From NCBI GenBank assembly GCA_046761045.1, contig JBHIFJ010000001.1:11795-75794 (forward strand): a stretch of DNA of 64,000 nt, in the 5' to 3' direction. The stretch is from Thermoplasmata archaeon. GTDB taxonomy: Archaea; Thermoplasmatota; Thermoplasmata; RBG-16-68-12; JAGMCJ01. The translations under genes were made by a program, and so were the position numbers. The notes below the pieces were generated by a model. It searched no databases, was not told where the DNA came from, and saw only the letters and a list, made by a program, of their open reading frames with translations. This document shows positions 18,850 to 55,650 of the stretch, piece by piece. How positions within the stretch are numbered: position 1 is the stretch's first letter; each line of letters opens with the position of its first letter.

Positions 18850-19494
18850 TCACTTCGGAATCTTCTCGTAATCTTCGAGGAACTTCCTGATTCCCACATC
18901 CGTCAGTGAATGCCTCACCATTTTCTGTAGGACGTTGAAGGGGACAGTGGCGATGTGGGCGCCCACCAGGGCGGATTCGACCACATGAATCGGATGCCTC
19001 ACACTTGCGACAATGATTTGTGTGTCGAAATCGTAGTTCTCGAAGATGGCGACGGTTTCTCTGATGACGTCCATGCCAACCTGGCCCTGGTCGTCGAGCC
19101 TTCCAATGAAGGGACTGACAAACGCGGCTCCCGCCTTCGCTGCGAGAAGCGCTTGATTCGAGGAGAATATCAGAGTCACATTTACCTTGATGCCCTCCTT
19201 CTTGAGCGCCTTTGTCGCCTTCAGACCGTCGGGAGTCATCGGAATCTTTATGACAATGTTCTTGTGAATCCTCGCCAGCTCTCTGGCTTCCTTTACCATG
19301 CCTTCCCAGTCCTCGCTTACGACTTCCGCGCTGATGGGGCCATCGACGATTTCGCAGATTTCCTTGACGACCTCCTCAAAGTTTCTCCCCTCCTTTGCGA
19401 TCAACGTCGGATTCGTGGTCACGCCATCGATTACTCCCCAGCTATTGGCCTCGCGTATATCGTCAACGTTTGCTGTGTCCAAGAATATCTTCAT
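18850..19494 (-). CDS. tal: Transaldolase / fructose-6-phosphate aldolase (type 3B)
   Basis: 214 aa; [23 protein letters not shown]-terminus and Lys-containing IKIPMT region typical of short TalC/Fsa. Confidence 0.85.
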
Positions 19495-20453
19495 AGACCT
19501 CCACCCTTCCTTCTCATGACGTCGTGTGCAGCCTTGATTACGTTTTCGGCTGTCAATCCGTACTTCTCCATCAGCTCGTCCGAGTCCCCAGACTCTCCGA
19601 AAACGTCGGGAATCCCCACGCGCTTCATCGGAATATGTGCGTTTTCAGCTAGGTCCATGGCAACTGCAGCACCCATTCCTACCATCACACTGTGCTCCTC
19701 CGCCGTCACCACGGCGCCCGTTTCTCTTGCTGCCTTTATCACCGCCTCTTTGTCCAATGGCTTGATTGTGCTCATGTTCAAGACCCTGGCATCTATTCCT
19801 TCTTTGGCCAGTTCGTCTGACGCAATCAGACACCTCGAAACCATGATGCCCGTGCCTATGAGGGTGACGTCGTCACCGTCCCTCAGAACCGTTGCCCTAC
19901 CAAGCTTGAATTCGTCCTCAGTGGACATGATTGTTGGGACATCTGCGCGACCCATCCGAAGGTATACAGGGCCCACATAGTCGGCCACAGCCTTTATCGC
20001 CAGGTATGTTTCCGGTGCGTCGGCCGGGACAACAACCGTGATGTTGGGAAGGGCGCGCATCAGTGCCACGTCCTCAACGATTTGGTGAGTCGCTCCGTCA
20101 CCGCCTACAGTTATCCCCGCATGAGTCGCTATTATCTTTACGTTGAGCTTGGGGTAAGCGATTGACTGCCTTATCTGATCATACACTCTCCCCGTTCCAA
20201 AGGCTGCGAAGGTGCTGGCGAACACGGTCTTTCCAGATGCTGCCAAGCCGGCTGCTATGCTCATCATGTTCTGCTCTGCGATTCCAACATTGAAGTGCCT
20301 TTCTGGGAACTCGTCCGCGAACAAGGACGTCTTCACAGACGTTGACAGATCCGCACTCAGAACCACGATGTCCTTTCTTTCCTTACCGAGTTCCACAAGA
20401 GCTCTTGCCCACAAGGCTCTCTGGCTCTCCTTCTTCCATGAACCGTAGTTCAT
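19491..20453 (-). CDS. Transketolase, C-terminal (pyrimidine-binding) subunit
   Basis: 320 aa; split-tkt arrangement, 4-nt overlaps with neighbours; transketolase pyr/C-terminal domain features. Confidence 0.85.
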
Positions 20454-21286
20454 GGCTCACCTCCGAGTTCGATCATGGCCTGTTTGTATTGCTCCTCGTC
20501 CGGCGCCTTGCCGTGAAATGCCACAGAGCCCTCCATGAAGCTGACGCCCTTTCCCTTGAGGGTTCTTGCGATTATCACCGTAGGTCTCCCTTTGACAGTT
20601 TCGGCCTTGTCGAAGGCCTCCAGTATCTCCTTGAAATTATGCCCGTCGATTTCGATGACTTTCCAGCCGAAGGCTTTCCACTTGTCAGCGAGCGGTTCAA
20701 GCGACATTATCTGCTCCGTTGGGCCGTCGAGCTGCATCAGATTCCTGTCAACGATTGCGCAAAGGTTGTCCAGTCTGAAGAATGCCGCTGCCATGGCGGC
20801 CTCCCATGTCTGGCCACAGTCGTTCTCCCCGTCACCAACCATGACATAGACACGGTAGTTGCGTCGGTCCAGCCTTGCAGCCAGGGCAATGCCGATGCCG
20901 ACGGAGAGCCCCTGCCCCTCAGATCCAGTGGAGGCCTCGACTCCCGGCGTTTTCCTCATGTCGGGATGACCCTGAAGTCTGCTCCCGGTTTTCCTGAGCG
21001 TGTCCAGCTCCGCAACGGGAAAGAACCCCCTCTCAGCAAGGGCTGCGTACCATGCGGGACAGGCGTGGCCCTTGCTCAAGACAAACCGATCTCTGTCCTC
21101 CCAGGAGGGGTTCTTTGGGTCCACATTGAGAACATGAAAGTAGAGGGCCGTGATCACGTCCGTGGCAGAGAGGGACCCACCAGGATGTCCTGATCCGGCC
21201 TGATACACCATTCGAATGATGTGCTGGCGAATCTTGCGGGCTTCGTCTTCGAGTTTGCCTATGAATTCCTGACTGTACCTGGCCAT
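20450..21286 (-). CDS. Transketolase, N-terminal (TPP-binding) subunit
   Basis: 278 aa; [10 protein letters not shown] and GDGENDCG(E) TPP-binding motifs. Confidence 0.85.
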
Positions 21287-21414
21287 GAAGTGTCCTCCCC
21301 ACCTCCTGAGTGGGTAAAGGGCTCAAATGTAATAAGATTTGGCGTTTTGGCCCTGACCTCGTTTCGAGACGGGGCCTCAAAAGTCTTTAATAACGACCGG
21401 ACATTAGCCGGAAT

Positions 21415-22077
21415 GTGGTTAAGATAGCACCTTCCATACTGTCTGCTGACTTCTGCAGGTTGGGCGAGGAAGTCATCGCCGCGGAGAAGGGCGGCGCCGA
21501 CATGATTCACATAGATGTCATGGATGGCGTCTTCGTGCCAAACCTCACGATCGGGCCTCCTGTTGTCAAGGGGATTAGGAAATGCACAGCGCTCGAGTTC
21601 GACTGCCATCTCATGGTTCAATCACCGGGGCCCCTCGTAGCTGACTTCATGAAAGCGGGGTCAAACCTCATCACGGTGCACGCAGAATCAGAAGGCGATA
21701 TTGGCAAGGTCCTCAGAGAGATCAGGTCAGGCGGGAACAGGGCTGGCCTGTCTCTGAATCCTCCAACACCCCTTTCGAGAGCCGAGCCTTTTCTTGAGAT
21801 GTTGGACCTTCTACTGGTCATGACAGTCAATCCCGGTTTCAGTGGACAGAGATTCATGCCCGAGGTTATTCCCAAGATCGAAGAGGCCCACAGGCGGATT
21901 GAGGATCTTGGAGTAGGAATCGACTTGCAGGTCGACGGCGGGATAAGCCCCGAGACAGCACACTCTGTCGTCAGGGCGGGCGCCAATGTGCTTGTGGCGG
22001 GTTCCGCAATCTATGGTGGCAACGTAGCCGAAAGAATCGCGCTACTCAGAGAGGCAGCGGAATCCGAAACTTATTAA
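21415..22077 (+). CDS. rpe: Ribulose-phosphate 3-epimerase
   Basis: 220 aa; KIAPSILSADF..GADMIHIDVMDGVFVPNLT and C-terminal LVAGSAIY motifs; GTG start. Confidence 0.85.
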   Translation: MVKIAPSILSADFCRLGEEVIAAEKGGADMIHIDVMDGVFVPNLTIGPPVVKGIRKCTALEFDCHLMVQSPGPLVADFMKAGSNLITVHAESEGDIGKVLREIRSGGNRAGLSLNPPTPLSRAEPFLEMLDLLLVMTVNPGFSGQRFMPEVIPKIEEAHRRIEDLGVGIDLQVDGGISPETAHSVVRAGANVLVAGSAIYGGNVAERIALLREAAESETY

Positions 22078-22107
22078 GGTCTAGGTACAATAAAAGGACG
22101 ACTCTGC

Positions 22108-22290
22108 ATGGATCCAAACGGAGCAAAGTTCGCACTACTCACCATGTCGGTGATTGTTCCCCTACTCCTCATTATGCTGGGAGTCATATTCGATTTTGGC
22201 GGGATCCTGTTGGTCCTGGGAGCACTTATCTGGATGGGCTCCTCTCTGATAGTATTCCTTCCATTCCTGGAGGAAGAGAAATCCCTGTGA
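22108..22290 (+). CDS. Small two-helix membrane protein (hypothetical)
   Basis: 60 aa, two hydrophobic helices; only ORF in a 255-nt gap; no further support. Confidence 0.25.
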   Translation: MDPNGAKFALLTMSVIVPLLLIMLGVIFDFGGILLVLGALIWMGSSLIVFLPFLEEEKSL

Positions 22291-22332
22291 TGCTGTTCTA
22301 GGTGACACGCGCCTCAGGTTCGTGGTCCGTGC

Positions 22333-24729
22333 CTAGGCTCTTGCCTTGAAGGCCTTCATCGTCTTGTTGAATTCCTTGTCCGTCACTTCTGACATAATCT
22401 TGTGCATTTCCTTCATCTTCGATGCGAATCTCTCGGCCTCCGCAGCTGAAATCCATTCGAGCTGGAGCCTGTTCGGGTCTATTCCCATCTTCTCCAGTTT
22501 CCTCTTCCATCTCTTTACTCTCTTGAGGGTCTGTTGGTTCGCATTGATATAGTGACAATCCTGGAGATGGCATCCCGAGACGAGCACGGCAGCAGCTCCC
22601 CTCTCAAACGCCCTCATGATGAACTTCTCTGCAACGCGGCCTGAGCACATTGTCCTGATGACGCGGGAGGAACTCGGATACTGCATCCTGGACACTCCGG
22701 CCAGATCTGCACCTGCGTAGGAACACCAGTTGCAGGCGAAGACGAGAACCTTATTGTGCGGGTCCCGCTCGAGCGCATGGTCGATTTGCGAAATGATTTG
22801 GTCATCCGTGAAATGTCTCATAGTTATGGCATCGTTGGGGCACTGAGCCCCACATGTTCCGCAACCTGCACAGGCCGCTTCCACAACGAACGCGAGTTTG
22901 GCATCCTTGTCCGCGGTTATCGCACCATAGGGGCACACCTTCTCGCAGGCGCCGCAGCCAGTACATCTCTCCTCATCCACTATGGGGGTGAGAGCCTCCA
23001 CCGTGACCTCTCCGCGTATCATGAGCCTGTTCGCCCTTGCTGCCGCGGCGGAGGCCTGAGTGACGCTCTCCTTTATGTCCTTGGGGGCCTCAGCACTTCC
23101 CGCCAGGAAGACTCCCCCGGTCGGCGTGTCAATGGGCTTGAGCTTCGGATGGGCTTCCAGGAAGAAGCCGTTCGAATCTGTCGATATGTTCAGAAGCCTC
23201 TGAATCTCCTCCTTGTCGTCCTGCGGTTCCAGTCCAATGGAGAGAATCACCATTCCGAAATTGGTGTCATAGATCTCCTGGAGCGTCGTGTTTTCTCCTC
23301 TGACTCTGAGAGTTCCGTCAGGATTCAGCTTGATGTCGAATGGCAGTCCCCTTATGAATCTGACCCCCTCCTCCTTGGCCCTCTTGTATAGGTCTTCGAA
23401 TCCCTTTCCGAAGGCTCTGATATCCATATAGAACACGGTGATATCGATTTCCGGCCAGTGCTCCTTGATCAAAAGAGCATCCTTTATCGTCTCCATACAG
23501 CAAACATTGCTGCAATACGGGTTTCCTCTGTCCTCGGTTCTCGAACCCACGCACTGTACGAAGGCCACGTTTCTTGGTTGCTTCGCATCGCTGGGCCGTA
23601 TGAGATGACCCTCTGTGGGTCCTGATGCGTTTATCAGCCTCTCAAATTCCAACGTCGTAAGCACATCTGGGTACTTTCCATAGCCATATTCCTCGAGGTC
23701 GCGCGGATCAAATGATTTCATCCCTGTCGCGACTATTATCGTCCCCACTTCGAGCTGAACCTCCTTCTCTGGTTCCATGTCAAAGTCAATCGCCTCCCTT
23801 TCGCAGGCTTCGATGCATTTGGCACAAGCCCTGACGTTCGGCTCGTTCAAGCAGAGGTCCATGTCAACGATGTAGCTGGAGGGGACGGACTGCGGGAAGG
23901 GTATGTATACTCCCTTTCTCGTCGTGAGTCCGAGGTCGAACTCGTTCGGCGACGTGACAGGGCAAACATCTGAGCAATCCCCGCAGGCCGTGCAATCGGC
24001 GGTGACGTAGCGGGCTTTCTGCATGACAAGAGCGCTGAAATTGCCGATGTAGCCATCGATGTGCTCTACTGTAGCGTTTGTCAGCACCTCGACATTCGGA
24101 TGTCTGCCGACTTCCGACATCTTTGGGGCGAGTATGCAGATTGAACAATCCATCGTGGGAAAGGTCTTGTCGATCTGTGCCATCCTTCCGCCTATGCTCG
24201 GCTCCTTCTCAACGAGATAGACTTGGTATCCACAGTCACCCAGATCGAGAGAAGCCTGAATTCCGGCCACGCCTCCACCGATGACCAGCGCGCTCTTTCT
24301 TACGGGAACCTTCTTCTCCACCTGCGGCTTCAGCAGTCGAGCCTTGGCGACAGCCATGGCAACAAGGTCCTTCGCCTTCTCCGTCGCTCCTTCCTTGTCG
24401 TGGAGATGAACCCAGCTGCAGTGCTCCCTGATGTTGGCCATCTCGAGAAGGTATCTGTTCAGCCCCGCCTCCTCGCAGGCATTTCTGAACGTCTCCTCAT
24501 GAAGTTTGGGCGAGCAGGAAGCAACGACGACCCTGTTGAGCCCATGCTCCTTTATGTCGTCCTTTATCTTCTGTTGTCCTGGCTCAGAGCAGGTGTACAT
24601 GTTGTGCTCCGCATAGACCACATCATCCAGAGTCTTTGCATGCTCCGCGACTTCCTCGCAGTGAACTGTTGCCCCTATGTTGAGGCCGCAGTGGCACACG
24701 TAAACGCCAATTCTGATCTCCTCTTTCAT
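22333..24729 (-). CDS. hdrA: Heterodisulfide reductase subunit A fused to MvhD-like domain (HdrA-MvhD)
   Basis: 798 aa from ATG 24729 (MKEEIRIGVYVCHCG); N-terminal 4-Cys domain, FAD GxGxxG (ALVIGGGVAGIQ), inserted and C-terminal 2x[4Fe-4S] CxxCxxCxxxCP motifs; last ~140 aa match MvhD (VFACNWCSYAGADLAG..CSGRV..GCHLQDCHY); start 4 nt after hdrBC stop. Confidence 0.85.
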   Translation of the reverse strand: MKEEIRIGVYVCHCGLNIGATVHCEEVAEHAKTLDDVVYAEHNMYTCSEPGQQKIKDDIKEHGLNRVVVASCSPKLHEETFRNACEEAGLNRYLLEMANIREHCSWVHLHDKEGATEKAKDLVAMAVAKARLLKPQVEKKVPVRKSALVIGGGVAGIQASLDLGDCGYQVYLVEKEPSIGGRMAQIDKTFPTMDCSICILAPKMSEVGRHPNVEVLTNATVEHIDGYIGNFSALVMQKARYVTADCTACGDCSDVCPVTSPNEFDLGLTTRKGVYIPFPQSVPSSYIVDMDLCLNEPNVRACAKCIEACEREAIDFDMEPEKEVQLEVGTIIVATGMKSFDPRDLEEYGYGKYPDVLTTLEFERLINASGPTEGHLIRPSDAKQPRNVAFVQCVGSRTEDRGNPYCSNVCCMETIKDALLIKEHWPEIDITVFYMDIRAFGKGFEDLYKRAKEEGVRFIRGLPFDIKLNPDGTLRVRGENTTLQEIYDTNFGMVILSIGLEPQDDKEEIQRLLNISTDSNGFFLEAHPKLKPIDTPTGGVFLAGSAEAPKDIKESVTQASAAAARANRLMIRGEVTVEALTPIVDEERCTGCGACEKVCPYGAITADKDAKLAFVVEAACAGCGTCGAQCPNDAITMRHFTDDQIISQIDHALERDPHNKVLVFACNWCSYAGADLAGVSRMQYPSSSRVIRTMCSGRVAEKFIMRAFERGAAAVLVSGCHLQDCHYINANQQTLKRVKRWKRKLEKMGIDPNRLQLEWISAAEAERFASKMKEMHKIMSEVTDKEFNKTMKAFKARA

Positions 24730-24733
24730 CTCA

Positions 24734-25849
24734 TCACGACTCCAACGACTCAGCCAACATGACGAACAGATCCTTGACCTCCGTGTTGACATCGCTCGGC
24801 TCATCCAAAGCGCACCTGAAGTGTATCAAGCATTTCGGGCACGCGGTTATCATCACATCGGCAATCTGAGATGCTTCCTTCAAGCGGCTCACCTGAATTC
24901 TCTTTGAGTCTTGATCGCAGTTCATCCAGCAGGAGGTCCCACAGCAGACTGACTTCTTTCTGTTGTCCTCCATCTCCACCAGTTCCAGGCCAGGAACCGA
25001 AAGCAATAGCTCTCTCGGGGCCTCGTAGATTCCTTGGAACCTTCCCAGTCTGCAGGAATCCTGATATGTGACCTTCTTTCCGTTCTCCTTGAACCTCAGG
25101 TCATCAAGTCTCTTCTCCAGGAAGTTAGACAGGTGGTGCAGCTCGATATCCTCCCTGAGGTCCACATAGTCCTCCTTGAAGGTGTTGTAGCATTCTGGGC
25201 AAGTGAAGACGATTTGCTTCACCTTGGACCGATTGATCATGGCAGTGTTCAGCTCGGCCAGCTCCGCAAACGTGTCTGTCTCTCCAGACCAAAGCATATC
25301 ATGACCACAACACACCTCATTCCTGAGAAGTCGTGGCTTGATGCCGATGCTGTTGAGCAGCGTTATCGCGCTCTTGGTAATCTCGGTGTGACTCCCCACG
25401 TCGCCTAGAATCAGGTCGTAGTAGGGTGCACAGCCTACAAACAGAAGAGTGGTGCCTCGGGTGTCTGTTTCCAATGAATCATCCAGCCATCCCAGTCTCT
25501 TCTGCTTCAGCTGACCGCTTGCCATTAGTCTCGCCATCGAGTGGAGAATCCCAGCGTGGGCACAGTCGCCATGGTCGTCACGCTTGACCAGTATCGCTCT
25601 GATTTCCCTCACAAAGACAGGGTAGTGAACGTCGGACGGACAATACTGGGAGCACGCCTCACATGTGAGACATTCCCACATCTCATTGGGATCGATTCTC
25701 TTCTCGCCGTAGGCGAGAATCCTCTCGACGATTCTTCGCGGGGAGTAGATGTTTCCGTTGTATGTGAGTGGACAGGCGAGCGTGCACTTGCCGCACGAGT
25801 AGCACATCTGGACCCGGTTTTCCTTGATGACCTCACCCAGTTCCATCAC
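24734..25849 (-). CDS. Heterodisulfide reductase HdrC-HdrB fusion (ferredoxin + two CCG domains)
   Basis: 371 aa; N-terminal 2x CxxCxxCxxxCP (CYSCGKCTLACP; CLTCEACSQYCP) = HdrC; C-terminal CCG motifs (NEVCCGHD; KSVCCGTSCW) = HdrB. Confidence 0.8.
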   Translation of the reverse strand: MMELGEVIKENRVQMCYSCGKCTLACPLTYNGNIYSPRRIVERILAYGEKRIDPNEMWECLTCEACSQYCPSDVHYPVFVREIRAILVKRDDHGDCAHAGILHSMARLMASGQLKQKRLGWLDDSLETDTRGTTLLFVGCAPYYDLILGDVGSHTEITKSAITLLNSIGIKPRLLRNEVCCGHDMLWSGETDTFAELAELNTAMINRSKVKQIVFTCPECYNTFKEDYVDLREDIELHHLSNFLEKRLDDLRFKENGKKVTYQDSCRLGRFQGIYEAPRELLLSVPGLELVEMEDNRKKSVCCGTSCWMNCDQDSKRIQVSRLKEASQIADVMITACPKCLIHFRCALDEPSDVNTEVKDLFVMLAESLES

Positions 25850-26265
25850 TTGCCGCCTCCCAATGGGTTGGGACCCTTGTTCTTGATCTCCTTGACGAAC
25901 TCCTTGACAACCTCAGCGAATCTTGTCCCCTCTGAGGCCGAAATCCATTCGAGGCGGATGCGGTCAGCACCCAGCCCGATGACATCGGCAACCTTTCTGG
26001 CATTCTCCATCCTGATCTCTGCTTTTTCGTTTCCGGAGTTGTAATGGCAGTCACCTGGGTGGCAGCCAGCGACCAGAACGCCATCGATGCCCTTCTCGAA
26101 AGCGCGGAATATATGACCCGGGTCGACACGACCTGAGCACATCACTCTGACTATCTTGACATTGGCTGGGTATTGGAGTCTGGAGGTCCCTGCAAGGTCA
26201 GCCCCAGAATAGGCACACCAGTTGCAGCAGAACGCAAGGATTCTTGGCTCGAACGGTTTCTTCAT
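25846..26265 (-). CDS. mvhD: MvhD-like [2Fe-2S] electron-transfer protein
   Basis: 139 aa; FCCNWCAYSGADLAG, CSGRVDP, GCHPGDCHY - canonical MvhD signature. Confidence 0.85.
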   Translation of the reverse strand: MKKPFEPRILAFCCNWCAYSGADLAGTSRLQYPANVKIVRVMCSGRVDPGHIFRAFEKGIDGVLVAGCHPGDCHYNSGNEKAEIRMENARKVADVIGLGADRIRLEWISASEGTRFAEVVKEFVKEIKNKGPNPLGGGK

Positions 26266-29253
26266 CTAAGCCCATCCCTCCAGACTCTCGATGATTCTGT
26301 CAAGCTGATCGCTCGTGCATCCGTAGACATCCAGCGCGCCAGTTGGGCACGCAACAACACAAGCACCACATCCCTTGCAGAGCACAGTATTCACCATTGC
26401 TGTTTTGATGTCTTCCGACTCCACAACCTCGATTGCGCCGAAATCGCAGACCTCAACACACCTACTGCACCATCTGCATCGTGATTCATTGACGTGAGCG
26501 ACCAAGGGCTCGACTTCTATTCTGTCCTTGGAGAGTAGCCCGAGAGCTTTCGTCGCAGCTCCTCTGCCTTGGGCAATGCTCTCGTCTGAAGGCTTCGCGG
26601 AATGGGCGAAGCCACATAGGAAGATGCCGTCGGTCGCGAATTCAACCGGCCTGAGCTTTCGGTGTGCTTCCAGGAAGAAGCCGTCCCCGCTCAGGGGGAC
26701 CTTCAGTATCTCGGACAGCTTCTCGTTGTCCGGATTCGGTCTTATGCCCGCGCTCAGAATCAGGTATTCCGGTTCGAGGAGAACATCCTCCATCAGGAAT
26801 GTGTCCTTCACGACGACATGCAGCTTCCCCTTCTCCTCCCTCACCTCGGGGGGATTCTCATCGTTGTATCTCAGGAATATGACGCCCCTCTTGGACGCCT
26901 CTCGATAGAACCTCTCCCTGAATCCATACGTCCGTATGTCCTTGTAGAGGACATAGACGGGCGTATCATGATATTTCCTCTTCACCCACAAGGCGTTCTT
27001 GATGGATGTGGAGCAGCATATGCGACTGCAGTTGTGATACTCGGGCACGCGAGAGCCCACGCACTGTATTATCACTATGCTCCTGGGATTGAAGTCCTCG
27101 TGGAGCATCCTCTCCTCCAGCTCGAGCTGGGTCATGACGTGGTCGCTCCTTCCGTACAGATACTCGGTGGGTCTGTACTCGACCGCGCCCGTGGCGACTA
27201 TGACGACCCCGTGATCGATATCGCTCCCATCCGCAAGCGTGGTGTGAAAGTTCCCAACGAATCCGTCGAGGGACTCGACCTCCGTTCCCATGTGCAATGT
27301 GATTCTGTCGTTGCTCCTCACACTCTCTATCGTGTCCGTGAGGAGCTTCTGAGGATCCATTCCCCTCAGCGTATGCGTTATCCTTCTCAGGTTCCCGCCA
27401 AGCTCGTTCGTCTTCTCGACGAGATGCGTCTTTATTCCGTGCTCCGCGAGGGACAGCGCGGCTGTCATCCCCGACAGTCCGCCTCCTATCACGAGGGCGG
27501 TCCTGTTGACGGGGACGGATACCTTCTGGAGGGGTTCCAGAAGCCTTGCCTTCGCGATCGCAGCCGCAACGAGTCCCTTGGCCTTCTCCGTCGCCTTCTC
27601 AGGCTCCTTGGAATGTACCCACGAACAGTGCTCGCGTATGTTCGCCATCTCGAAGAGATAGGGATTCAGTCCCGCCTCCCTTATCGTCTCCTGGAAGAGT
27701 TTCTCATAGGACCTTGGTGAGCAGGATGCAACGACGACCCGATTGAGGTCATGCTCCCTTATGGACTCCTTGATCCTCTCCTGGGTCGTGACGGAGCATG
27801 TGTACAGATTGTCCTCAGCGTGAACGACGTTGGGCAGCGTCCCAACGTACTCGACGACGGAGGGAACGTCCACGACACCGCCTATGTTGATTCCGCAGTG
27901 GCATACGAAGACACCGATGCGGGGGGCTTCCACTTCAACCGAGGTCCCCTCTGGCGAATCCTTGCGAGCTTTGACCTCTTCGAAAACGGGGGTGACCAGA
28001 GAGGCTGCCGATGACTGGCACACCGAGTCCGGGATGTCCTTCGGTTCAGCTATGGTTCCCGCAACGTATACGCCGGGTCTCGTGGTCTGAAAGTTCTCAA
28101 AGGAGATCGTCCTGAAGAAACCATAATCGTTGAGTTCCGCGCCAAGGACCTTGCTGAGCCCTTCCGCGTCCTTCGGCGGTCTCATCCCAACCGACAACAC
28201 GACAAGGTCGAACTCCTTGTCCTCAATCTTGTCATTCTCAGGATACCTGGTGAGGACTGCACCGCTAGGGGCGGGCTCGAGTGCCGAGACCCTATTCCCT
28301 CTGTAGATTCTTATGCCGTGCTCCTCTTCGGCCCTCATCCTGAAGTCTTCGAACTCCTTGCCAAAAGCCCTCAGGTCTATGGAGAAGATGTGGATGTCGA
28401 CTGACGGGTTATGCTCCTTCGCCACAATCGCCTCCTTCAGCGCGTACATGCAGCACACGGAGGAGCAGTACTCTCCTCCGTATACGACGGATCTGCTTCC
28501 CACGCACTGAATGAACGCGATGTTCTTGGGCTCCCTTCCGTCGGAGGGCCTCACCACCCTTCCCTGTGTCGGACCGGATGCGCTGAGGAGCCTCTCGAAC
28601 TCGAGGCTCGTTATGACATTCGGAAGGACGCCGTATCCGTACTCGTGTATCACGGAGGGATCGAAGACATCCGCTCCGGATGCGATTATGACGCTTGCCA
28701 CCTCTATCCTCGTCTCCTCCTCTCTCTGATCGAACTCTATGGCCTGCGCCTCGCAGAACTTCTCGCAGGCCCTGCATTTTCCCGTCTTGAAGTAGATGCA
28801 GTTGTCCCTGTCTATGACATATGTGGAGGGAACGGATTGCGGATATGCCCTATATATCGCCTTTCTGATGGAGCTGCCGGCATCGAACTCATTGAGCACC
28901 TTGGCGGGACACTTCTCGGAGCAGATTCCGCAGGCGACGCACTTCTCCTCGTTCACATACCTGGGATTCCTCCTTATCACGGCGGTGAAGTTCCCCCTCT
29001 CTCCCTCGAGCGCCATGAGCTCGGCGTTTGTGAGAAGCTCTATATTGGGATGTCTTCCCGCCTCCACGAGCTTGGGAGAGAGTATGCACATTGAACAATC
29101 ATTCGTGGGAAAGGTCTTGTCAAGCTGAGCCATCCGACCGCCGATGAATGGGGAGCTTTCGAGAATCGTCACCTGTGCGCCAGCGTTGGCTATATCAATG
29201 GCGCTCTGGATGCCAGCGATTCCTCCTCCTATCACAAGGATGCCCTTGTCCAA
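26266..29253 (-). CDS. Tandem-duplicated HdrA-like flavoprotein (995 aa)
   Basis: First module (aa 1-~430): FAD motif VIGGGIAGIQ, inserted ferredoxin, lacks N-terminal Cys cluster; second module (~aa 440-995): VFVCHCGINIGG Cys-cluster domain, second FAD motif LVIGGGLSGM, C-terminal 2x[4Fe-4S] (CRWCSRCVEVC; CKGCGACVVACP). Begins 1 nt after korG stop. Confidence 0.8.
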   Translation of the reverse strand: MDKGILVIGGGIAGIQSAIDIANAGAQVTILESSPFIGGRMAQLDKTFPTNDCSMCILSPKLVEAGRHPNIELLTNAELMALEGERGNFTAVIRRNPRYVNEEKCVACGICSEKCPAKVLNEFDAGSSIRKAIYRAYPQSVPSTYVIDRDNCIYFKTGKCRACEKFCEAQAIEFDQREEETRIEVASVIIASGADVFDPSVIHEYGYGVLPNVITSLEFERLLSASGPTQGRVVRPSDGREPKNIAFIQCVGSRSVVYGGEYCSSVCCMYALKEAIVAKEHNPSVDIHIFSIDLRAFGKEFEDFRMRAEEEHGIRIYRGNRVSALEPAPSGAVLTRYPENDKIEDKEFDLVVLSVGMRPPKDAEGLSKVLGAELNDYGFFRTISFENFQTTRPGVYVAGTIAEPKDIPDSVCQSSAASLVTPVFEEVKARKDSPEGTSVEVEAPRIGVFVCHCGINIGGVVDVPSVVEYVGTLPNVVHAEDNLYTCSVTTQERIKESIREHDLNRVVVASCSPRSYEKLFQETIREAGLNPYLFEMANIREHCSWVHSKEPEKATEKAKGLVAAAIAKARLLEPLQKVSVPVNRTALVIGGGLSGMTAALSLAEHGIKTHLVEKTNELGGNLRRITHTLRGMDPQKLLTDTIESVRSNDRITLHMGTEVESLDGFVGNFHTTLADGSDIDHGVVIVATGAVEYRPTEYLYGRSDHVMTQLELEERMLHEDFNPRSIVIIQCVGSRVPEYHNCSRICCSTSIKNALWVKRKYHDTPVYVLYKDIRTYGFRERFYREASKRGVIFLRYNDENPPEVREEKGKLHVVVKDTFLMEDVLLEPEYLILSAGIRPNPDNEKLSEILKVPLSGDGFFLEAHRKLRPVEFATDGIFLCGFAHSAKPSDESIAQGRGAATKALGLLSKDRIEVEPLVAHVNESRCRWCSRCVEVCDFGAIEVVESEDIKTAMVNTVLCKGCGACVVACPTGALDVYGCTSDQLDRIIESLEGWA

Positions 29254-29802
29254 CTAACTCGCCACCGAGTTCTTGCCGTACTCGTAGCCCTTCTCAAAGG
29301 CTTCGAGATTGAGCTCTTCCGTTCCCTTTGGAACCGAGTCAAGAATCGACTTCCTCATCGCATCATAGCCGACAACGTCCGATACTGCTGTGAGAAATCC
29401 AAGCATAACGATGTTGGCAACGATCTTCTTTCCGAGGTCTTCCGCCATTCTGGTGGCGGGAGCCTTGTATATCTTGTTCTTTCCACTGAACGATGAGACA
29501 TCGACGAGATCTTCATCGACAATCAGTATCGCATCATCGGCGGCCCTTACATGATATTGATTGTAGGCGTCCTGGGACATTAGAACCAGCACGTCAGGGG
29601 CAGTTCCCATCGGATAGTTGATGTCCTCGTCGCTAATGATGACATCAGCATGGCAGGCTCCGCCCCTCGCCTCTGGACCGTAGGATTGAGTCTGGACCGC
29701 TTCCTTCCTTTCATAGAGCGCGACAGCCTTTCCCAGGATGAAGCCCGCCAAGACAATGCCTTGCCCCCCGAAACCGCCCAGACGGACCTCCTTCCTGCTC
29801 AC
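29254..29802 (-). CDS. 2-oxoacid:ferredoxin oxidoreductase, gamma subunit
   Basis: 183 aa from GTG 29802 (GTGA overlap with korB stop); VRLGGFGGQGIVLAG gamma-subunit N-terminus; the ORF track's upstream extension is an overlap artefact. Confidence 0.8.
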   Translation of the reverse strand: MSRKEVRLGGFGGQGIVLAGFILGKAVALYERKEAVQTQSYGPEARGGACHADVIISDEDINYPMGTAPDVLVLMSQDAYNQYHVRAADDAILIVDEDLVDVSSFSGKNKIYKAPATRMAEDLGKKIVANIVMLGFLTAVSDVVGYDAMRKSILDSVPKGTEELNLEAFEKGYEYGKNSVAS

Positions 29803-30671
29803 TTTATCACACCCTTCGCTTTGAGCATCTCCCTTTCGAGCTCGCAGTAGGTGGGTCGCTCTATGTCTACAAAATCGCCCACGACAATGGGCTCCCCTCC
29901 TCTCATATGAAGCACAAGCTCGTCCCAAGAGGCATCGTTCTTTATCACGGACTTCTCCCTGTAGTAGCGCAGTTCCTGAAGCCCTTCTCCGAGCTTGTTT
30001 GGTCTTCCGAAGCCTGTGGGGCATGGGGAAATAATCTCGATGAACGTGAACCCCTTCTTCTTGAGCGCTTTCTCCATGGACTTCTCAAGCTGGCGGCAGT
30101 GCAAAGTTGTCCATCGTGAGACATAGACCGCTCCCACAGCAGCCGCCAGGTACGGAAGATTGAATGGATGCTCAAAGTTCCCGTAGCGGGTCGTCGTGGT
30201 CTTCGCTTCCACTGGTGTCGTTGGACCCTGCTGACCGCCGGTCATGCCATAGTTGAAGTTGTTTACACAGATTACATTGATGTCGATGTTGCGCCTGGCG
30301 GCGTGAAGGAAGTGGTTTCCCCCTATTGCGAAAAGGTCGCCATCGCCGCTGAATACAGTGATGCAGAGTTCGGGGTTGGCAATCTTGAGCCCAGTTGCGA
30401 ATGGGATGGGCCTACCGTGAGTGGTGTGATATGAGTCGATCTTGACATATCCCGCGATCCTTCCTGTACACCCGATTCCAGATAGGAGCACCTGCCCCTC
30501 AATGGGAATGTCGACCCTTTCCAACGCCTGCGCATAGCAGGTCATCGCAGATCCAAGGCCACAGCCCGAGCACCATATGTGAGGAAGCCGGTCCCGTCTC
30601 AAAATGTGGTCGAGCGGATGCTCCTCTCCAACTTCGATCCTAGTACCATCAGGCGCTTCTCGAACGCTCAA
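29799..30671 (-). CDS. 2-oxoacid:ferredoxin oxidoreductase, beta subunit (TPP-binding)
   Basis: 290 aa from TTG 30671 (SD GGAGGTG 6 nt upstream; overlaps korA stop); CSGCG..GIGC Fe-S Cys, GDGD TPP-binding motif. Confidence 0.85.
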   Translation of the reverse strand: MSVREAPDGTRIEVGEEHPLDHILRRDRLPHIWCSGCGLGSAMTCYAQALERVDIPIEGQVLLSGIGCTGRIAGYVKIDSYHTTHGRPIPFATGLKIANPELCITVFSGDGDLFAIGGNHFLHAARRNIDINVICVNNFNYGMTGGQQGPTTPVEAKTTTTRYGNFEHPFNLPYLAAAVGAVYVSRWTTLHCRQLEKSMEKALKKKGFTFIEIISPCPTGFGRPNKLGEGLQELRYYREKSVIKNDASWDELVLHMRGGEPIVVGDFVDIERPTYCELEREMLKAKGVIK

Positions 30672-31804
30672 GTTGCCACCTCCCTTATCTTGTGAAGAAT
30701 GGCCTCCGGGGACATCATGCCTCCACCTGGGTGAGTGACGCTGAGGACCCTCCCACTTGCGAACCTCTCGACCTCCCTGGAAATCTGTCCCATGTTTATT
30801 TCTGGGACAAGGAACGCCTTGGCGCTCTCGGCCAGCTCTCTTATCCTCGCCTCGGGGAAGGGCCAAGCCGTGATTAGTCGAAGGAGACCCGCCCTCATTC
30901 CCTCCTCTCTCGCGAAATTCACCGCCCTGCCAGCAGATCTTGAAGCAGCTCCATAGGAAACGACAATGATGTCAGCATCCTCCGTCTGGCTCTCCTCGAA
31001 TTCCCATATGTCCGGCGCGTGTTCTCTTATCTTTCTAATAAGGCGTGTCACCATCTCGTGCTGGACCTCTTCGTTTATTGCAGGATAGCCACGGATGTCA
31101 TGGGTCAAACCGGTGACGTGTATCCCATATCCCTCTCCAGCGATCGCCATTGGCGGAATGAGGTCCTCATCGGGTTCGTAGGGCAAGAAGTCCTTCTTGT
31201 GTGTTGGCCTCTTTCGGGACGCGATTTCTATCTCCTCGGGCTCGGGAATGACGACCCTCTCCACCATGTGTCCGATTATCTCGTCCGCCATTACGAGGAC
31301 TGGCTGGCGGAACTTCTCGGATGTGTTGAAGGCTCTAATCGTAAGGTCAAACATCTCCTGGCACGAGTTAGGAACGTAGGCAATGGCTTCGTAGTCACCG
31401 TGGGAACCCCACCGTGCCTGCATCATGTCTGCTTGTCCTACCAGAGTGGGCAATCCCGTTGACGGTCCTCCTCTCTGGACGTTGACTATGACACACGGCG
31501 TCTCCGTCACTATCCCGAGTCCGATGTTCTCCTGCATGAGGCTGAATCCGGGTCCAGAGGTTGCCGTCATTGCCTTAACCCCAGCGCATGAGGCGCCGAG
31601 GACGGCGGCGAGGCTTCCGATTTCATCTTCCATCTGAATATAGTGACCGCCAACCTGTGGCAGCCGCAAGGCCATCCTCTCGGCAGTCTCTGTCGCAGGC
31701 GTAATGGGATAGCCCGCAAAGAACCTGCAACCGGCTGCTAGAGCTCCCTCCGCGGCAGCGATATCGCCCATCATGAAATGCCTGCCAGTCAGCACCGGCT
31801 TCAT
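30668..31804 (-). CDS. 2-oxoacid:ferredoxin oxidoreductase, alpha subunit
   Basis: 378 aa from ATG 31804 ([39 protein letters not shown]); ATGA overlap with korD stop. Confidence 0.85.
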
Positions 31805-32073
31805 TCCTCCTCCTCCGTGTATATCGCGAACTCGGGGCATACTAGCATGCAGAAATTGCAGTTTATGCAGCCATCCTCCTTCCCGTCCTTTATCATTGGT
31901 GGGTGATATCCCTTCCTGTTGATCTCCCTGGACTGCTCCAGAATGCCTTTCGGACAAAACTCGATGCAGAACCCGCACCCCTTGCACCTGTCTGGGATTA
32001 AGTATACTCGCCCTTTCGGCGTCTTGACCTTGTTCCTGTCAAGCGGGGTGCGCCAGTATTTCACGAACACCAT
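31801..32073 (-). CDS. 2-oxoacid:ferredoxin oxidoreductase, delta subunit (2x[4Fe-4S] ferredoxin)
   Basis: 90 aa; [12 protein letters not shown] and [12 protein letters not shown] motifs. Confidence 0.8.
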
Positions 32074-32185
32074 CCTCCGTGACTGTTACGCCTTCGGTCC
32101 GCACGAGGTCCTGAAGTTTCACTTCTGTCCCCTTGCGAAAAGAAAGTACTGGATGGGTTGTGGAACAGACATTCATTATAGGACC

Positions 32186-32205
32186 TCGTCTCCAAAAGGA
32201 GACGA
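32186..32205. promoter_or_regulatory. Perfect 8-bp inverted repeat TCGTCTCC-AAAA-GGAGACGA in divergent kor / regulator intergenic region
   Basis: Read directly in sequence; sits between minus-strand korD start (32073) and plus-strand tandem-HTH regulator gene (32368), flanked by AT-rich TATA-like elements. Confidence 0.35.
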
Positions 32206-32367
32206 CTCGAATTACATTTCAAGAAGTATATAAGCCTTATTTGGTCATTCATGTGAAGCCATTGGATTTCTCGTGATATGGGAACGAATGGCGTTGCCTG
32301 CTTTCCCGAATGACGAATTGCGCAATCCTGATAGGAAATATCGGGATTTCAAAAGCAAACCTTTTTC

Positions 32368-33456
32368 TTGAACTCCTTCATACTGACAAGCGTGCGGAGA
32401 GGCGTGCTTTCAGACAACGAGAAGCGGGTGCTTCACGGCCTGGTTCGCCATACAAATCTGAACGATCGCGAGCTGAGCAGCGTGCTCGACATGAAGCACT
32501 CCACGGTGACGACAATCAAGCACAGACTGGCGAAGAACGGCTACTTCACCAGGAAGAGAGTCCCATTCCTTCAGAATCTCGGATGCGAAATGCTCGGCGT
32601 CACCTATGCGGATTTCAACCCAGCTGTGTCTGCTGAGGCGAGGGTTGAAAAGGCGAGGGAGAAGATTGAGATCTACGACGAACTCTTCTATTCAGTCGGG
32701 GAGACGAACAACGGGTTCTCGCTGAGTTTCTCGAGGAACTACACCAATATCGAGAAGATAGGAGATATCAGGACGCAACTCTTCGCCGAGCTTGGGTTGC
32801 TGGAAGGCAACTTCCCAACACAGGTGGTCTTTCCCTTTGAAACGAGTGAAATACTCAGGTTTCTCGACTATTCGAAATTGCTCGCCCATGACTTCGAAAT
32901 CGAAGAGGATGAGAAGGAAGAGGAGAGGCAATTCGTGAAAGGGGACCCAGTCACATTGAAGAAGCGAGAAAGAATCGCTCTGTATGCCCTTGTGAAGTTC
33001 CCTAACGCAAGAGATGTGCTCGTGGCCGAGAGAACGGGTCTCTCAAGGCATACAATCTCCAACCTCAGGCGGAAACTGGAAGAGCGAGGGCTAATGAGGA
33101 CGATAGTGATACCAGATCTTGGCAAGCTGGGGTTTGAGATTCTCTGCTTCACTCACACGAGACTCAGTCCGAAGACGCCTTTTGATCCAGAGAGCATTGA
33201 CATGAGCTTCCTGAATACCGATTCGGTGATATTCCTGGCGGCCAAGAGATTCGAGAACATCATGCTCTCCATCTATCGGACCTATGAGGATTTCAAGGTG
33301 GAGAATTCGACCCTCGTGCGCTATTTCAAGGAGAACGACATGATTGCAGATATGCCCCTAGTTCGACTCTATAGCATTAGGCGTATGATAACCATCAAGA
33401 ACCTCGTCTTCGGACCCTTCGTCAAGCAGTTACTCGGCCTGAACGTGGACTTCTAG
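32368..33456 (+). CDS. Transcriptional regulator with two winged-helix HTH domains
   Basis: 362 aa; two HTH-like segments (SDNEKRVLHGLVRHTNLNDRELSSVLDMKHSTVTTIKHRLAKNGY and KKRERIALYALVKFPNARDVLVAERTGLSRHTISNLRRKLEERGL) each followed by a helical/beta region. Confidence 0.5.
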   Translation: MNSFILTSVRRGVLSDNEKRVLHGLVRHTNLNDRELSSVLDMKHSTVTTIKHRLAKNGYFTRKRVPFLQNLGCEMLGVTYADFNPAVSAEARVEKAREKIEIYDELFYSVGETNNGFSLSFSRNYTNIEKIGDIRTQLFAELGLLEGNFPTQVVFPFETSEILRFLDYSKLLAHDFEIEEDEKEEERQFVKGDPVTLKKRERIALYALVKFPNARDVLVAERTGLSRHTISNLRRKLEERGLMRTIVIPDLGKLGFEILCFTHTRLSPKTPFDPESIDMSFLNTDSVIFLAAKRFENIMLSIYRTYEDFKVENSTLVRYFKENDMIADMPLVRLYSIRRMITIKNLVFGPFVKQLLGLNVDF

Positions 33457-33719
33457 CTGCTAATCTCTCTTCTGAGTTCGAACACGACCGGGTTTCTCGC
33501 GTCTGGGCAGCAGACAACGGTCCTGTCTGGATCATCCTCCCATGGGAATGAGCCGCCAAATTGCAGAACTCTCACAGCGGGGAAGATTGAATGCATCGCG
33601 CTTGCGCATACCTTCTCTCTGTCATCTGGATAAATGAACTCGTCGCCCACGGAATGCCCAAGGGGGCATTCACCCTTTTCAAGGATTCCTACGATTCTCA
33701 TCCTGACCTTTGAACTCAC
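33453..33719 (-). CDS. Small Cys-containing protein, TIGR04076-like (hypothetical)
   Basis: 88 aa; pattern GECPLGH..GDEF...C.....P....GG.FPWE......CPD..NPVVFELRR recalled as TIGR04076-type; 4-nt overlap with upstream regulator end. Confidence 0.35.
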   Translation of the reverse strand: MSSKVRMRIVGILEKGECPLGHSVGDEFIYPDDREKVCASAMHSIFPAVRVLQFGGSFPWEDDPDRTVVCCPDARNPVVFELRREISS

Positions 33720-33788
33720 GAAATCACCTCCTATGATGAGACCCAGTCGAGCTGGCAGTTGACAGTTTCGTGGAAGATGCAGAAGGGC

Positions 33789-34310
33789 CTATCCCTCGAG
33801 TATGGGAACGTATCCGTACCAGTCTCCTTCGGTCTCAAGATAGCTGAGATTCTCCTCAAGCAGCTTTCGATGGGACTCCTCGAAGCGAGACAGTTTCTCG
33901 AATAGCTCCTTGGCAGACCCCACACTCGTCATCATTCCACATGCAGAGTAGAACTCTATCGACCTCTTCTCTATTTCGAGTGCGAACTTCGTCGCCTCAA
34001 TCGAATCCATGCTTTTGGTTATCTCGTCCTTCTTCGAGAAGACCACCCTGGGGTTTGGCAGATCGATGTTCAGACTCTCATCTGTCATCTTGCCCTCGCT
34101 GATTTCCTTCCCAAGGTTGTCGTGCTCTGCCTTGAGCCATTCCCTATGGTCTACTTCCTGATTCGCAAGGAACTCAAATAGAGCCTTGCCTTTCTCGCTC
34201 TCGACAAACTCGCGGACTTCCCTGTAGAGGCTGTAGCCATACTCCTCCAGTTCCATGGCCGTCCTCAGCGCGTCGAGAAGAGTGGATTCACTGCCCTTTT
34301 TGGCATCCAT
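33789..34310 (-). CDS. Ferritin-like / rubrerythrin-family diiron four-helix protein
   Basis: ~174 aa from ATG 34310 (SD GGGGGT upstream); paired E...ExxH motifs (ELEEYG...EVDH and EIEKRSIEFY...EESH). Confidence 0.55.
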   Translation of the reverse strand: MDAKKGSESTLLDALRTAMELEEYGYSLYREVREFVESEKGKALFEFLANQEVDHREWLKAEHDNLGKEISEGKMTDESLNIDLPNPRVVFSKKDEITKSMDSIEATKFALEIEKRSIEFYSACGMMTSVGSAKELFEKLSRFEESHRKLLEENLSYLETEGDWYGYVPILEG

Positions 34311-52351: not shown

Positions 52352-52378
52352 TTATAGTTGAATATCAGTTTTATATTG

Positions 52379-55248: not shown

Positions 55249-55647
55249 TCACTTCCTCGCGATTCTCTCGTGGAACTCGACTATTTCCTGAAGAGGCGTT
55301 CCAGGACCGAATACGGCGGCTATACCCATCTTCTTGAGCTTCGGGACGTCCTCATCTGGGATTATCCCCCCGCAGGTCACGACGATATCTTTGATTCCCT
55401 TCTCCTTGAGGATGTCCATCACGCTCTTGAAGAGGGTCATGTGAGCCCCCGAGAGACAGCTCAATCCAATCGCGTTCACGTCCTCCTGGATGGCGGCCTC
55501 CACTATCTGCTCAGGCGTCTGATGGAGGCCGGTGTATATGACTTCCATCCCTGCATCTCTCAGCGCGCGGGCGACGACCTTCGCTCCTCTATCATGGCCA
55601 TCCAATCCGGGTTTTGCGACTAGCACTCTCAACTTCGCCATTGACAC
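55249..55647 (-). CDS. Methylmalonyl-CoA mutase, B12-binding subunit
   Basis: 132 aa; DxHxxG cobalamin-binding motif ([12 protein letters not shown]), GLSCLSG; 1 nt after meaB. Confidence 0.85.
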
Positions 55648-55650
55648 ACC

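Follow-up and report, generated by a model that had tools for sequence, protein, structure and literature searches.

In the MvhADG-HdrABC complex of methanogens, electrons from a mid-potential donor enter via MvhD, the high-potential acceptor is served at HdrB of the heterodisulfide reductase (Hdr), and ferredoxin is the low-potential acceptor; in the Methanospirillum complex, formylmethanofuran dehydrogenase takes the place of ferredoxin on Hdr. In such supercomplexes, a CO2-fixing enzyme receives the low-potential electrons that would otherwise go to free ferredoxin (PMC13518236). The closest described gene arrangement comes from tubeworm symbionts, with the order tfrB-tfrA-hdrC-hdrB-korD-korA-korB-korC-hdrA-flxD-flxC-flxB-flxA; the same genes are co-localised in Thioflavicoccus mobilis, their expression in the E. 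laminata symbiont exceeded the genome median, and direct bifurcation to 2-oxoglutarate:ferredoxin oxidoreductase (OGOR) was proposed solely from genomic data and transcript levels (Rubin-Blum et al. 2019, PMC6315080). Here we analyse a 64,000-nt stretch of a Thermoplasmata archaeon (contig JBHIFJ010000001.1, positions 11,795 to 75,794; hereafter the window), which carries an eight-gene operon joining a four-subunit 2-oxoacid:ferredoxin oxidoreductase (Kor) to an Hdr module.

A second point of comparison is BamDEF of the class II benzoyl-CoA reductase of Geobacter metallireducens (Appel et al. 2026, preprint, 10.64898/2026.04.10.717634). According to this work, BamE is a fused HdrA dimer with the bifurcating flavin adenine dinucleotide (FAD) in its N-terminal half (Lys280, Cys59/62); its inserted ferredoxin domain feeds the ferredoxin-like BamC and then the catalytic BamB, and BamD, an HdrBC fusion, hands high-potential electrons to an electron-transferring flavoprotein (ETF) (10.64898/2026.04.10.717634). 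Fused, or type II, HdrA proteins are known as a class from anaerobic methanotrophic archaea (ANME) and other archaea (PMC12054007, PMC9012536).

An eight-gene Kor-Hdr operon

The region 22333-32073 of the window contains eight genes on the minus strand, and Pfam and NCBIfam profile searches identified all eight products, agreeing in each case with the identity proposed in the initial annotation:

31801-32073, minus strand: korD, delta subunit, 90 aa, ferredoxin-like with two [4Fe-4S] clusters (Fer4_7 and Fer4)
30668-31804, minus strand: korA, alpha subunit, 378 aa (POR_N and PFOR_II; NF006412, 566 bits, cut-off 411)
29799-30671, minus strand: korB, beta subunit, 290 aa, predicted to bind thiamine pyrophosphate (TPP) and a [4Fe-4S] cluster (TPP_enzyme_C; TTG start)
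29254-29802, minus strand: korG, gamma subunit, 182 aa (POR domain; NF006323, 249 bits, cut-off 235; GTG start)
26266-29253, minus strand: tandem ("type II", fused-dimer) HdrA, 995 aa, two FAD/TrxR modules (TTG start)
25846-26265, minus strand: MvhD-like [2Fe-2S] adaptor, 139 aa (FlpD, 186 bits)
24734-25846, minus strand: HdrC-HdrB fusion (HdrCB), 370 aa (Fer4_8 and two CCG domains)
22333-24729, minus strand: HdrA2-type ("type Ia") HdrA with a C-terminal MvhD domain, 798 aa (NF040770 HdrA2, 1244 bits, cut-off 1100)

Gene boundaries were re-derived from the sequence by resetting the starts; the hdrA2 start was placed at the ATG at 24729, in agreement with profile position 1 and a Logan gene call. 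From korD to hdrA2, the junctions measured −4, −4, −4, 0, 0, −1 and +4 nt, within the limit of 7 nt originally given for overlaps and gaps. The kor-internal overlaps are ATGA (korD/korA), TTGA (korA/korB) and GTGA (korB/korG). At the boundary between the two halves of the operon, the TAG of korG abuts the TTG start of the tandem hdrA (TAG TTG), so the gap is 0 nt and not the 1 nt first assigned. The hdrA-mvhD gap is also 0 nt, mvhD and hdrCB overlap by 1 nt, and hdrCB and hdrA2 are 4 nt apart.

A GGAGG/GGTGG-like motif lies upstream of most starts. The sense strand has no run of at least five T in 21900-32400, and terminator-like matches across the operon stayed at chance level, although the intrinsic-terminator and sigma-70 scans (at or below chance) are ill-suited to archaea. 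The gene order from korB to hdrA2 was repeated in independent Logan assemblies. Because the junctions are translationally coupled and no internal terminator signal was found, we conclude that the eight genes form one operon.

Pfam scans covered the main open reading frames (ORFs) of the window, about 48 of the 56 mapped; neither a hydrogenase nor a formate dehydrogenase was detected in them, nor any Flx, ETF or GltD-type protein. The absence of a hydrogenase had already been stated in the initial annotation and thus held in this set, and it extends to formate dehydrogenase.

Recurrence of the Kor-Hdr linkage

The synteny comparison that the initial annotation had proposed was run from both sides of the operon. 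A search with KorA against metagenomes recovered 80 loci at 58-68% identity, of which 37 were informative, that is, held a complete korDABG set with at least 1.5 kb on both sides. A gene for HdrA, MvhD or HdrCB lay within 500 nt on the same strand in 23 of these 37, and an Hdr gene lay within 6 kb on the same strand in 33. The KorA loci formed 33 clusters at 80% identity, and 18 of the 19 informative clusters were Hdr-positive; when clustered at 70% identity, 11 of 12 were. Cluster members bore NCBI labels of Thermoplasmata, Anaerolineae and Acidobacteria, and the linkage itself was seen in metagenome-assembled genomes (MAGs) labelled Thermoplasmata and Anaerolineae. Sister contigs with 83-85% KorA identity retained the upstream synteny of the window.

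A search with the tandem HdrA against GTDB genomes gave 80 loci at 46-56% identity, which span Bathyarchaeia, Thermoplasmata, Methanomassiliicoccales, Desulfobacterales, Syntrophobacterales, Chloroflexota, Asgard archaea and others. In most of them, hdrAA-mvhD (hdrAA being the tandem hdrA) formed a conserved unit, and kor was found within 10 kb in none of the 80. The Hdr module is therefore promiscuous, and its link to kor is confined to the Kor clade. A lineage-specific accident, first suggested by the search from the Hdr side, was overturned by the search from the Kor side. Taken from the genomic comparison, the kor-hdr linkage looks functional rather than accidental, a view that is well supported by the recurrence, and the pairing appears to be widespread in uncultured archaea and bacteria.

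As a separate observation among the tandem-HdrA loci (L005-L084), pairs of tandem hdrA and mvhD were repeated two to three times head to tail, for example in L007, L016 and L075, in Thermoplasmata, Bathyarchaeia, Methanomassiliicoccales and Desulfobacterota.

Gene orders and partner modules in relatives

Relatives of the Kor genes showed several arrangements. Alongside the order of the window, korDABG-hdrAA-mvhD-hdrCB(-hdrA2), we found korDABG-hdrC-hdrB-hdrAA-mvhD-hdrCB-hdrA2 (L123), korDABG-hdrA2-hdrCB with a second korABG set (L166, L171), and hdrA2-korDABG with a flavoprotein of the Fe-S/NAD(P) type ahead of it (L125). The order hdrC-hdrB-korDABG-hdrA-mvhD occurred twice, followed in L146 by an Fe-S protein and a fumarate-reductase-like flavoprotein (FAD_binding_2), and in L111 by a Fer4_22 Fe-S protein and a 274-aa ORF that is a candidate Flx-like protein. 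Because gene orders vary among the loci, selection seems to act on the association itself rather than on the inheritance of one block.

Several loci combined Kor with a recognisable electron donor. In L147 (9574-17177), korDABG-hdrA-mvhD is directly followed by the genes for the small (Oxidored_q6) and large (NiFeSe_Hases) subunits of a NiFe hydrogenase; this contig thus holds Kor and an Mvh-type hydrogenase in one Hdr cluster. In L128 (12799-15999), L172 (11609-14836) and L173 (10993-14247), the slot of the tandem HdrA is occupied by an HdrA-like chain about 1070 aa long, into which a GltD module (Fer4_20 and Pyr_redox_2) is inserted that looks like a built-in NAD(P)H site. This gene is followed by mvhD and hdrCB in L128 and L172, with hdrA2 next only in L128, and L173 ends beyond it with a 226-aa ORF that has no assignment. 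A GltD-type NAD(P)H module (Fer4_20 and Pyr_redox_2) is also part of the Kor cluster in L134, as in L128 and L172, and in the Acidobacteria contig L168 korDABG is followed only by a GltD-like flavoprotein.

Candidates for the high-potential partner were an ETF (L169, L098) and the fumarate-reductase-like flavoprotein of L146. In L169 (8683-18659) and L098 (8096-18239), korDABG-hdrA2-hdrCB is accompanied by ETF genes (etfB and etfA in L169, an etfB-like gene in L098), and an extra protein of 600-750 aa with Fer4 and CCG domains is encoded beside HdrCB. By analogy, these sets recall the docking of ETF on BamD of benzoyl-CoA reductase.

The deltaproteobacterial locus L046 (3654-20175) combines a CooS-type CO dehydrogenase, hdrCB-tandem hdrA-mvhD, a further HdrA-like protein and a molybdopterin (Fdh-like) subunit, and is thus another case of a low-potential enzyme adjoining the same type of Hdr module. 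Deltaproteobacterial hdrCB-hdrAA-mvhD loci had been considered as true bamDEF; this assignment was rejected, as L046, the one checked, is flanked by CooS and the molybdopterin protein and not by AOR.

Kor subunits and predicted substrate

The Kor genes encode a four-subunit enzyme of the Kor/Oor type, with separate alpha, beta, gamma and delta genes carrying the POR_N/PFOR_II, TPP_enzyme_C, POR and double [4Fe-4S] domains, respectively. The translation of KorD contains two CxxCxxCxxxCP motifs, and its best NCBIfam match was OGOR_delta/OorD (59 bits against a cut-off of 125). In KorB, a GDG...NN TPP motif and CxxC...C...C cysteines were recognised by eye. The 182-aa korG gene call recurs in the Logan contig L001.

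The alpha and gamma subunits pass generic 2-oxoacid:acceptor models only, with the 2-oxoglutarate-specific models ranking next, below their cut-offs. KorA scored 392 bits on the 2-oxoglutarate-specific alpha model NF007206 (cut-off 579), and the best match of KorB was the 2-oxoglutarate ferredoxin oxidoreductase beta model NF007207 (240 bits, cut-off 364). The nearest solved chains of KorA were 1yd7/4wbx (2-keto acid:ferredoxin oxidoreductase alpha), 8ys5 (2-oxoglutarate synthase alpha) and 6n2n, which we take to be an OGOR and which the structure table gives under a generic name only.

Near the kor-hdr clusters of relatives, sucC and sucD flank 5-oxoprolinase genes; glutamate dehydrogenase, fumarase and a Frd/TfrA-like flavoprotein are encoded there as well, as is MeaB, whose gene in L169 (1684-2622) lies about 6 kb upstream of the cluster. 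These neighbours point to the branch of C4-C5 dicarboxylates, a context that favours 2-oxoglutarate as the substrate and falls short of proof. Kor is a four-subunit 2-oxoacid:ferredoxin oxidoreductase whose substrate is predicted to be, most likely, 2-oxoglutarate. The window also encodes methylmalonyl-CoA mutase and an acyl-CoA dehydrogenase, both already recognised in the initial annotation and found again by Pfam, at least 22 kb from the operon:

54313-57345, minus strand: MeaB and the large and B12-binding subunits of methylmalonyl-CoA mutase, at a distance of about 22 kb

The mutase and MeaB genes of the window and the MeaB gene of L169 may reflect a link through succinyl-CoA.

Architecture of the Hdr module

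In the tandem HdrA, two GxGxxG modules start at residues 9 and 590, as is characteristic of type II proteins. Alignment to the HdrA of M. wolfeii (5odc_A) assigned residues 5-372 to a TrxR/FAD domain with an inserted ferredoxin domain (Cys105-167), residues 442-615 to an N-terminal Fe-S domain followed by the start of the second TrxR/FAD module, and residues 855-989 to a C-terminal ferredoxin domain. The N-terminal half carries Cys53/Cys56 (C194/C197 of M. wolfeii HdrA) and Lys273 (K409); the second FAD module has Lys752 and lacks both the Cys pair and the inserted domain. Because the two halves carry complementary domains, the chain probably behaves as a built-in heterodimer. To our knowledge, BamE is the only type II HdrA with biochemistry.

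The HdrC-HdrB fusion joins an HdrC-like dicluster domain (two cubane clusters) to two complete CCG motifs, each with all five cysteines in the translation (C-X39-CC-X35-CxxC and C-X35-CC-X33-CxxC). Its best NCBIfam match was TfrB (142 bits, cut-off 385), and it failed the methanogen equivalogs for HdrB (TIGR03288, 28 bits, cut-off 345) and HdrC (TIGR03290, 46 bits, cut-off 160). Among PDB structures, the HdrC part matched 5odc_C and the CCG part 9ojn_A. The HdrA2-type protein matched NF040770 over profile positions 1-775 of 777, as expected of a type Ia protein, and its FlpD domain spans residues 686-804 of the long ORF.

Proposed electron transfer and alternative explanations

We consider it somewhat more likely than not that KorDABG is coupled to an HdrA-type flavin-based electron-bifurcating module in which Kor, at the low-potential arm, stands in for free ferredoxin. 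The two [4Fe-4S] clusters of KorD would substitute for free ferredoxin. They would link the TPP/[4Fe-4S] site of KorAB, by way of the inserted ferredoxin domain, to the bifurcating FAD on its low-potential side; this FAD would sit in the N-terminal half of the tandem HdrA. The HdrC-HdrB fusion would form the high-potential branch, acting on a thiol/disulfide or ETF-like partner, and MvhD together with the HdrA2-type subunit would join the flavin to an intermediate-potential carrier of two electrons. The counterpart of HdrA2 in Methanosarcina reacts with F420H2; by analogy with HdrA2B2C2 of that genus, F420H2 is a candidate carrier, and the HdrA2-type subunit, the only candidate for an intermediate-potential partner in the window, would be its likely entry or exit point.

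Gene content, operon structure, cofactor motifs and the recurrence of the linkage are observations; complex formation, the arm assignment, the carrier and the direction of this device are what we infer from them. The bifurcating FAD is placed in the N-terminal half because Cys53/Cys56, Lys273 and the inserted and C-terminal ferredoxin domains match features of BamE. Kor is placed in the ferredoxin position, with the delta subunit as the docking point, because relatives hold a recognisable donor module together with Kor (L147, L128, L134, L172 and the published Flx clusters).

The relevant standard potentials, drawn from textbooks and the papers cited, are about −500 mV for 2-oxoglutarate/succinyl-CoA plus CO2, about −340 mV for F420, about −320 mV for NAD(P), −140 mV for the heterodisulfide and +30 mV for fumarate. 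The heterodisulfide value has recently been revised to −281 mV. That of ETF is near 0 mV (10.64898/2026.04.10.717634). Given these potentials, a mid-potential carrier could feasibly feed both Kor and a high-potential acceptor by bifurcation, and the reverse is feasible too. In the forward direction, succinyl-CoA and CO2 would be converted to 2-oxoglutarate at about −500 mV, driven by the second electron going downhill; in the backward direction, the low-potential electrons of 2-oxoglutarate oxidation would merge with high-potential electrons to reduce the intermediate carrier. The device would be reversible in principle. Reductive 2-oxoglutarate synthesis is favoured by mechanistic precedent and by the published case from the reductive tricarboxylic acid (rTCA) cycle, and catabolic oxidation with confurcation by the sucCD/5-oxoprolinase and glutamate dehydrogenase context of close relatives and by the mutase and acyl-CoA dehydrogenase of the window. 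The choice between the two is close to even, and we lean slightly towards the reductive direction on mechanistic precedent.

Several observations weigh against this proposal. In close relatives, the neighbouring sucCD, 5-oxoprolinase and glutamate dehydrogenase genes give a catabolic impression that pulls against the reductive direction, and the scanned ORFs of the window did not include a recognised donor module (Mvh, Flx, GltD-type, Fdh or ETF). With 28 bits on the HdrB model of methanogens, the CCG part of HdrCB is remote from that protein, and kor was missing from the surroundings of the closest genomic relatives of the tandem HdrA. Evidence for a Kor-Hdr complex from biochemistry, structures or transcripts was not found in the literature, and co-expression of enzymes sharing free ferredoxin would yield the same synteny.

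The last point leads to the most serious alternative, in which the coupling is metabolic and not physical: Kor and Hdr would be separate enzymes, co-transcribed over a shared ferredoxin pool, with Kor reducing ferredoxin and an HdrA2B2C2-like enzyme re-oxidising it while reducing a disulfide and/or F420. Such an arrangement fits an HdrA2 that passes the NCBIfam cut-off, the use of free ferredoxin by the Methanosarcina enzyme and by characterised enzymes of the Kor family, and the occurrence of the Hdr module without kor at 80 other genome loci. A shared pool, however, rarely keeps genes so interleaved as in hdrC-hdrB-korDABG-hdrA-mvhD (L146, L111), and both the stop/start coupling through the korG-hdrA junction and the survival of the association through several rearrangements and across domains speak for a closer tie, so that we regard separate enzymes as unlikely, if a real contender. 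We find it improbable that Kor is an electron-input module replacing the Mvh hydrogenase, which would send 2-oxoacid electrons through MvhD and the HdrA flavin to a disulfide at HdrCB and to ferredoxin. No other donor enzyme is encoded in the operon or among the ORFs scanned, MvhD, the usual donor adaptor, comes after the tandem HdrA, and the catabolic neighbours in relatives (gdh, sucCD, 5-oxoprolinase genes) would suit 2-oxoglutarate oxidation; yet a donor at about −500 mV can reduce ferredoxin without bifurcation, and relatives hold Kor next to a bona fide donor, namely Mvh in L147, a GltD-type module in L128 and L172 and Flx in the published clusters, where Kor does not substitute for it. 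The functional coupling of Kor and Hdr suggested in the initial annotation is thus strengthened by the linkage in 33 of 37 informative relatives, whereas its reading of Kor as a stand-in for a hydrogenase is probably incorrect, given the separate donor modules of relatives.

Chance or lineage-specific adjacency of two unrelated operons in a Thermoplasmata lineage would agree with the Hdr clusters of other Thermoplasmata that lack kor (L007, L014, L015, L023, L027). The linkage in 18 of 19 informative KorA clusters, in differing orders and in MAGs of both Thermoplasmata and Anaerolineae, its independent report in Gammaproteobacteria (Rubin-Blum et al. 2019, PMC6315080) and the 0-nt gap between korG and hdrA make this explanation very improbable.

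Beyond the coupling of Kor to the bifurcating module, we give about even weight to a broader proposal: that the operon encodes a hard-wired KorDABG-Hdr supercomplex in which a 2-oxoglutarate synthase/oxidoreductase replaces ferredoxin, which would add a third example to Hdr-Fmd and class II benzoyl-CoA reductase, and that it belongs to a modular family, widespread among uncultured archaea and bacteria, with interchangeable donor (Mvh, GltD-type, Flx, HdrA2) and high-potential (HdrBC, ETF, fumarate reductase) modules. The reductive carboxylation of succinyl-CoA and its reverse, near −500 mV, lie at the edge of the reach of cellular ferredoxin. If Kor does sit on a bifurcating flavin, this would explain 2-oxoglutarate synthesis in anaerobes that have no obvious source of low-potential ferredoxin; run in reverse, the device would use the low potential at which 2-oxoacids are oxidised to drive another oxidation that would be uphill by itself. 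A central-carbon enzyme would then join the short list of HdrA-wired catalytic modules, in support of the idea that HdrA modules serve as building blocks that can be exchanged. The comparative set offers concrete test constructs in the form of variants containing Mvh, GltD, ETF or fumarate reductase, and simpler variants such as korDABG-hdrA2-hdrCB are better expression targets than the eight-gene operon.

Operon flanks and other features of the window

The operon is flanked by a divergent regulator gene on one side and by the convergent gene for ribulose-phosphate 3-epimerase (rpe, 21415-22077, plus strand) on the other:

32074-32367, minus strand: intergenic region upstream of korD, 294 nt, presumed promoter and 5' leader
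32368-33456, plus strand: TrmB/MarR-type helix-turn-helix (HTH) regulator, divergent from the operon (Pfam TrmB, MarR and HTH matches)

The upstream region of korD contains A/T-rich, TATA-like stretches (ttatata near 32230 and tataat near 32180, from a reading of the sequence), and no Rfam family matched in 21000-34000, which includes this region. The TrmB/MarR-type gene is a candidate regulator of the operon, and a homologous regulator occupies the same divergent place upstream of korD in contigs L165 and L174.

The archaeal origin of the window is indicated by a TFIIB gene at 52358-53302, and NCBI lists the identical KorA sequence under a Thermoplasmata MAG. Next to rpe, a split transketolase is encoded on the minus strand (N-terminal half 20450-21286, C-terminal half 19491-20453); the opposite-strand ORFs at 18955-19980 and 20342-21193 have no Pfam match and are probably spurious. 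A gene at 38662-40806 on the minus strand encodes a 714-aa multihaem cytochrome c with seven CXXCH motifs and one CXXXCH, a hydrophobic segment at the N terminus and matches to Cytochrom_C552, Paired_CXXCH and CarboxypepD_reg, which hints at electron transfer of the extracellular or periplasmic type; a 706-aa homologue lies in the same position in L174. Two large plus-strand ORFs, at 1751-5338 (1195 aa) and 34462-37197 (911 aa), gave no Pfam match, and the latter corresponds to a 910-aa ORF at the equivalent place in L165. A string of MoxR AAA ATPase, DUF58 and DUF4129 genes at 14431-18768 (minus strand) is typical of MoxR-vWA-type systems and unrelated to the operon.

Comparison with described systems

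The operon shares HdrA flavin-based bifurcation and the MvhD adaptor with the MvhADG-HdrABC and Hdr-Fmd/Fwd supercomplexes of methanogens, and its best PDB matches were 5odc, 8rvu and 7bkb. It differs from them in having no hydrogenase, formate dehydrogenase or formylmethanofuran dehydrogenase in the operon, and in an HdrCB that fails the HdrB and HdrC equivalogs; genes for CoM and CoB synthesis and for Mcr are likewise absent from the window, which covers 64 kb of the genome. The F420H2- and ferredoxin-dependent HdrA2B2C2 of Methanosarcina acetivorans is resembled by the 798-aa HdrA2 adjoining an HdrC/HdrB-type gene, and by the minimal set korDABG-hdrA2-hdrCB in L098, L166, L169 and L171; in the window, however, the B and C parts are fused and divergent, and the set is extended by Kor and by a second, tandem HdrA. 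PadEFGHI, the NADH-dependent phenylglyoxylate dehydrogenase, likewise links a 2-oxoacid:ferredoxin oxidoreductase core to pyridine nucleotide through an FAD/Fe-S subunit, and L168 is comparable. Enzymes of this type perform a simple two-partner transfer, whereas the module of the window has the three-arm layout of a bifurcating enzyme (HdrA, MvhD and a CCG subunit).

The trio of fused HdrA dimer, MvhD-like adaptor (BamF) and HdrBC fusion in BamDEF is matched at 24734-29253 of the window. Compared by the description in the preprint, the numbering of BamE and the tandem HdrA corresponds nearly residue for residue (Cys 59/62 and 53/56, Lys 280 and 273), whereas BamE has a Gln at the second flavin where the tandem HdrA has Lys752. 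BamF is more than 100 aa longer than the 139-aa MvhD and contains selenocysteine, and the distal cluster of BamD is degraded, whereas HdrCB keeps all ten CCG cysteines. The catalytic module of Bam is the tungsten AOR-type BamBC with input through BamGHI; in the window Kor stands instead, and neither AOR-family nor NuoEFG-like genes were found among the ORFs scanned.

With the symbiont cluster of Rubin-Blum et al. 2019, the operon shares a four-subunit Kor interleaved with hdrA, an MvhD-like gene (flxD there) and hdrB/hdrC on one strand, and the layout of L111 and L146 is nearly identical to it. The symbiont cluster is bacterial and lies inside an rTCA cluster with ATP citrate lyase; its HdrA is an ordinary single one, HdrB and HdrC are encoded separately, and TfrA and the NADH module FlxABC belong to it, in contrast to the tandem HdrA, HdrC-HdrB fusion and extra HdrA2-type subunit of the window, where FlxABC, TfrA and ATP citrate lyase were absent from the ORFs scanned. 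The initial annotation was not aware of the arrangement as a described standard one; this related bacterial cluster has been described (PMC6315080); the literature covered, from which the Appel et al. 2021 review of HdrA was missing, yielded no description of the archaeal form and no later test of the proposal made for the symbionts. The archaeal form, with tandem HdrA, HdrCB fusion and HdrA2 and without Flx, is therefore a new variant of a concept that has a published bacterial precedent.

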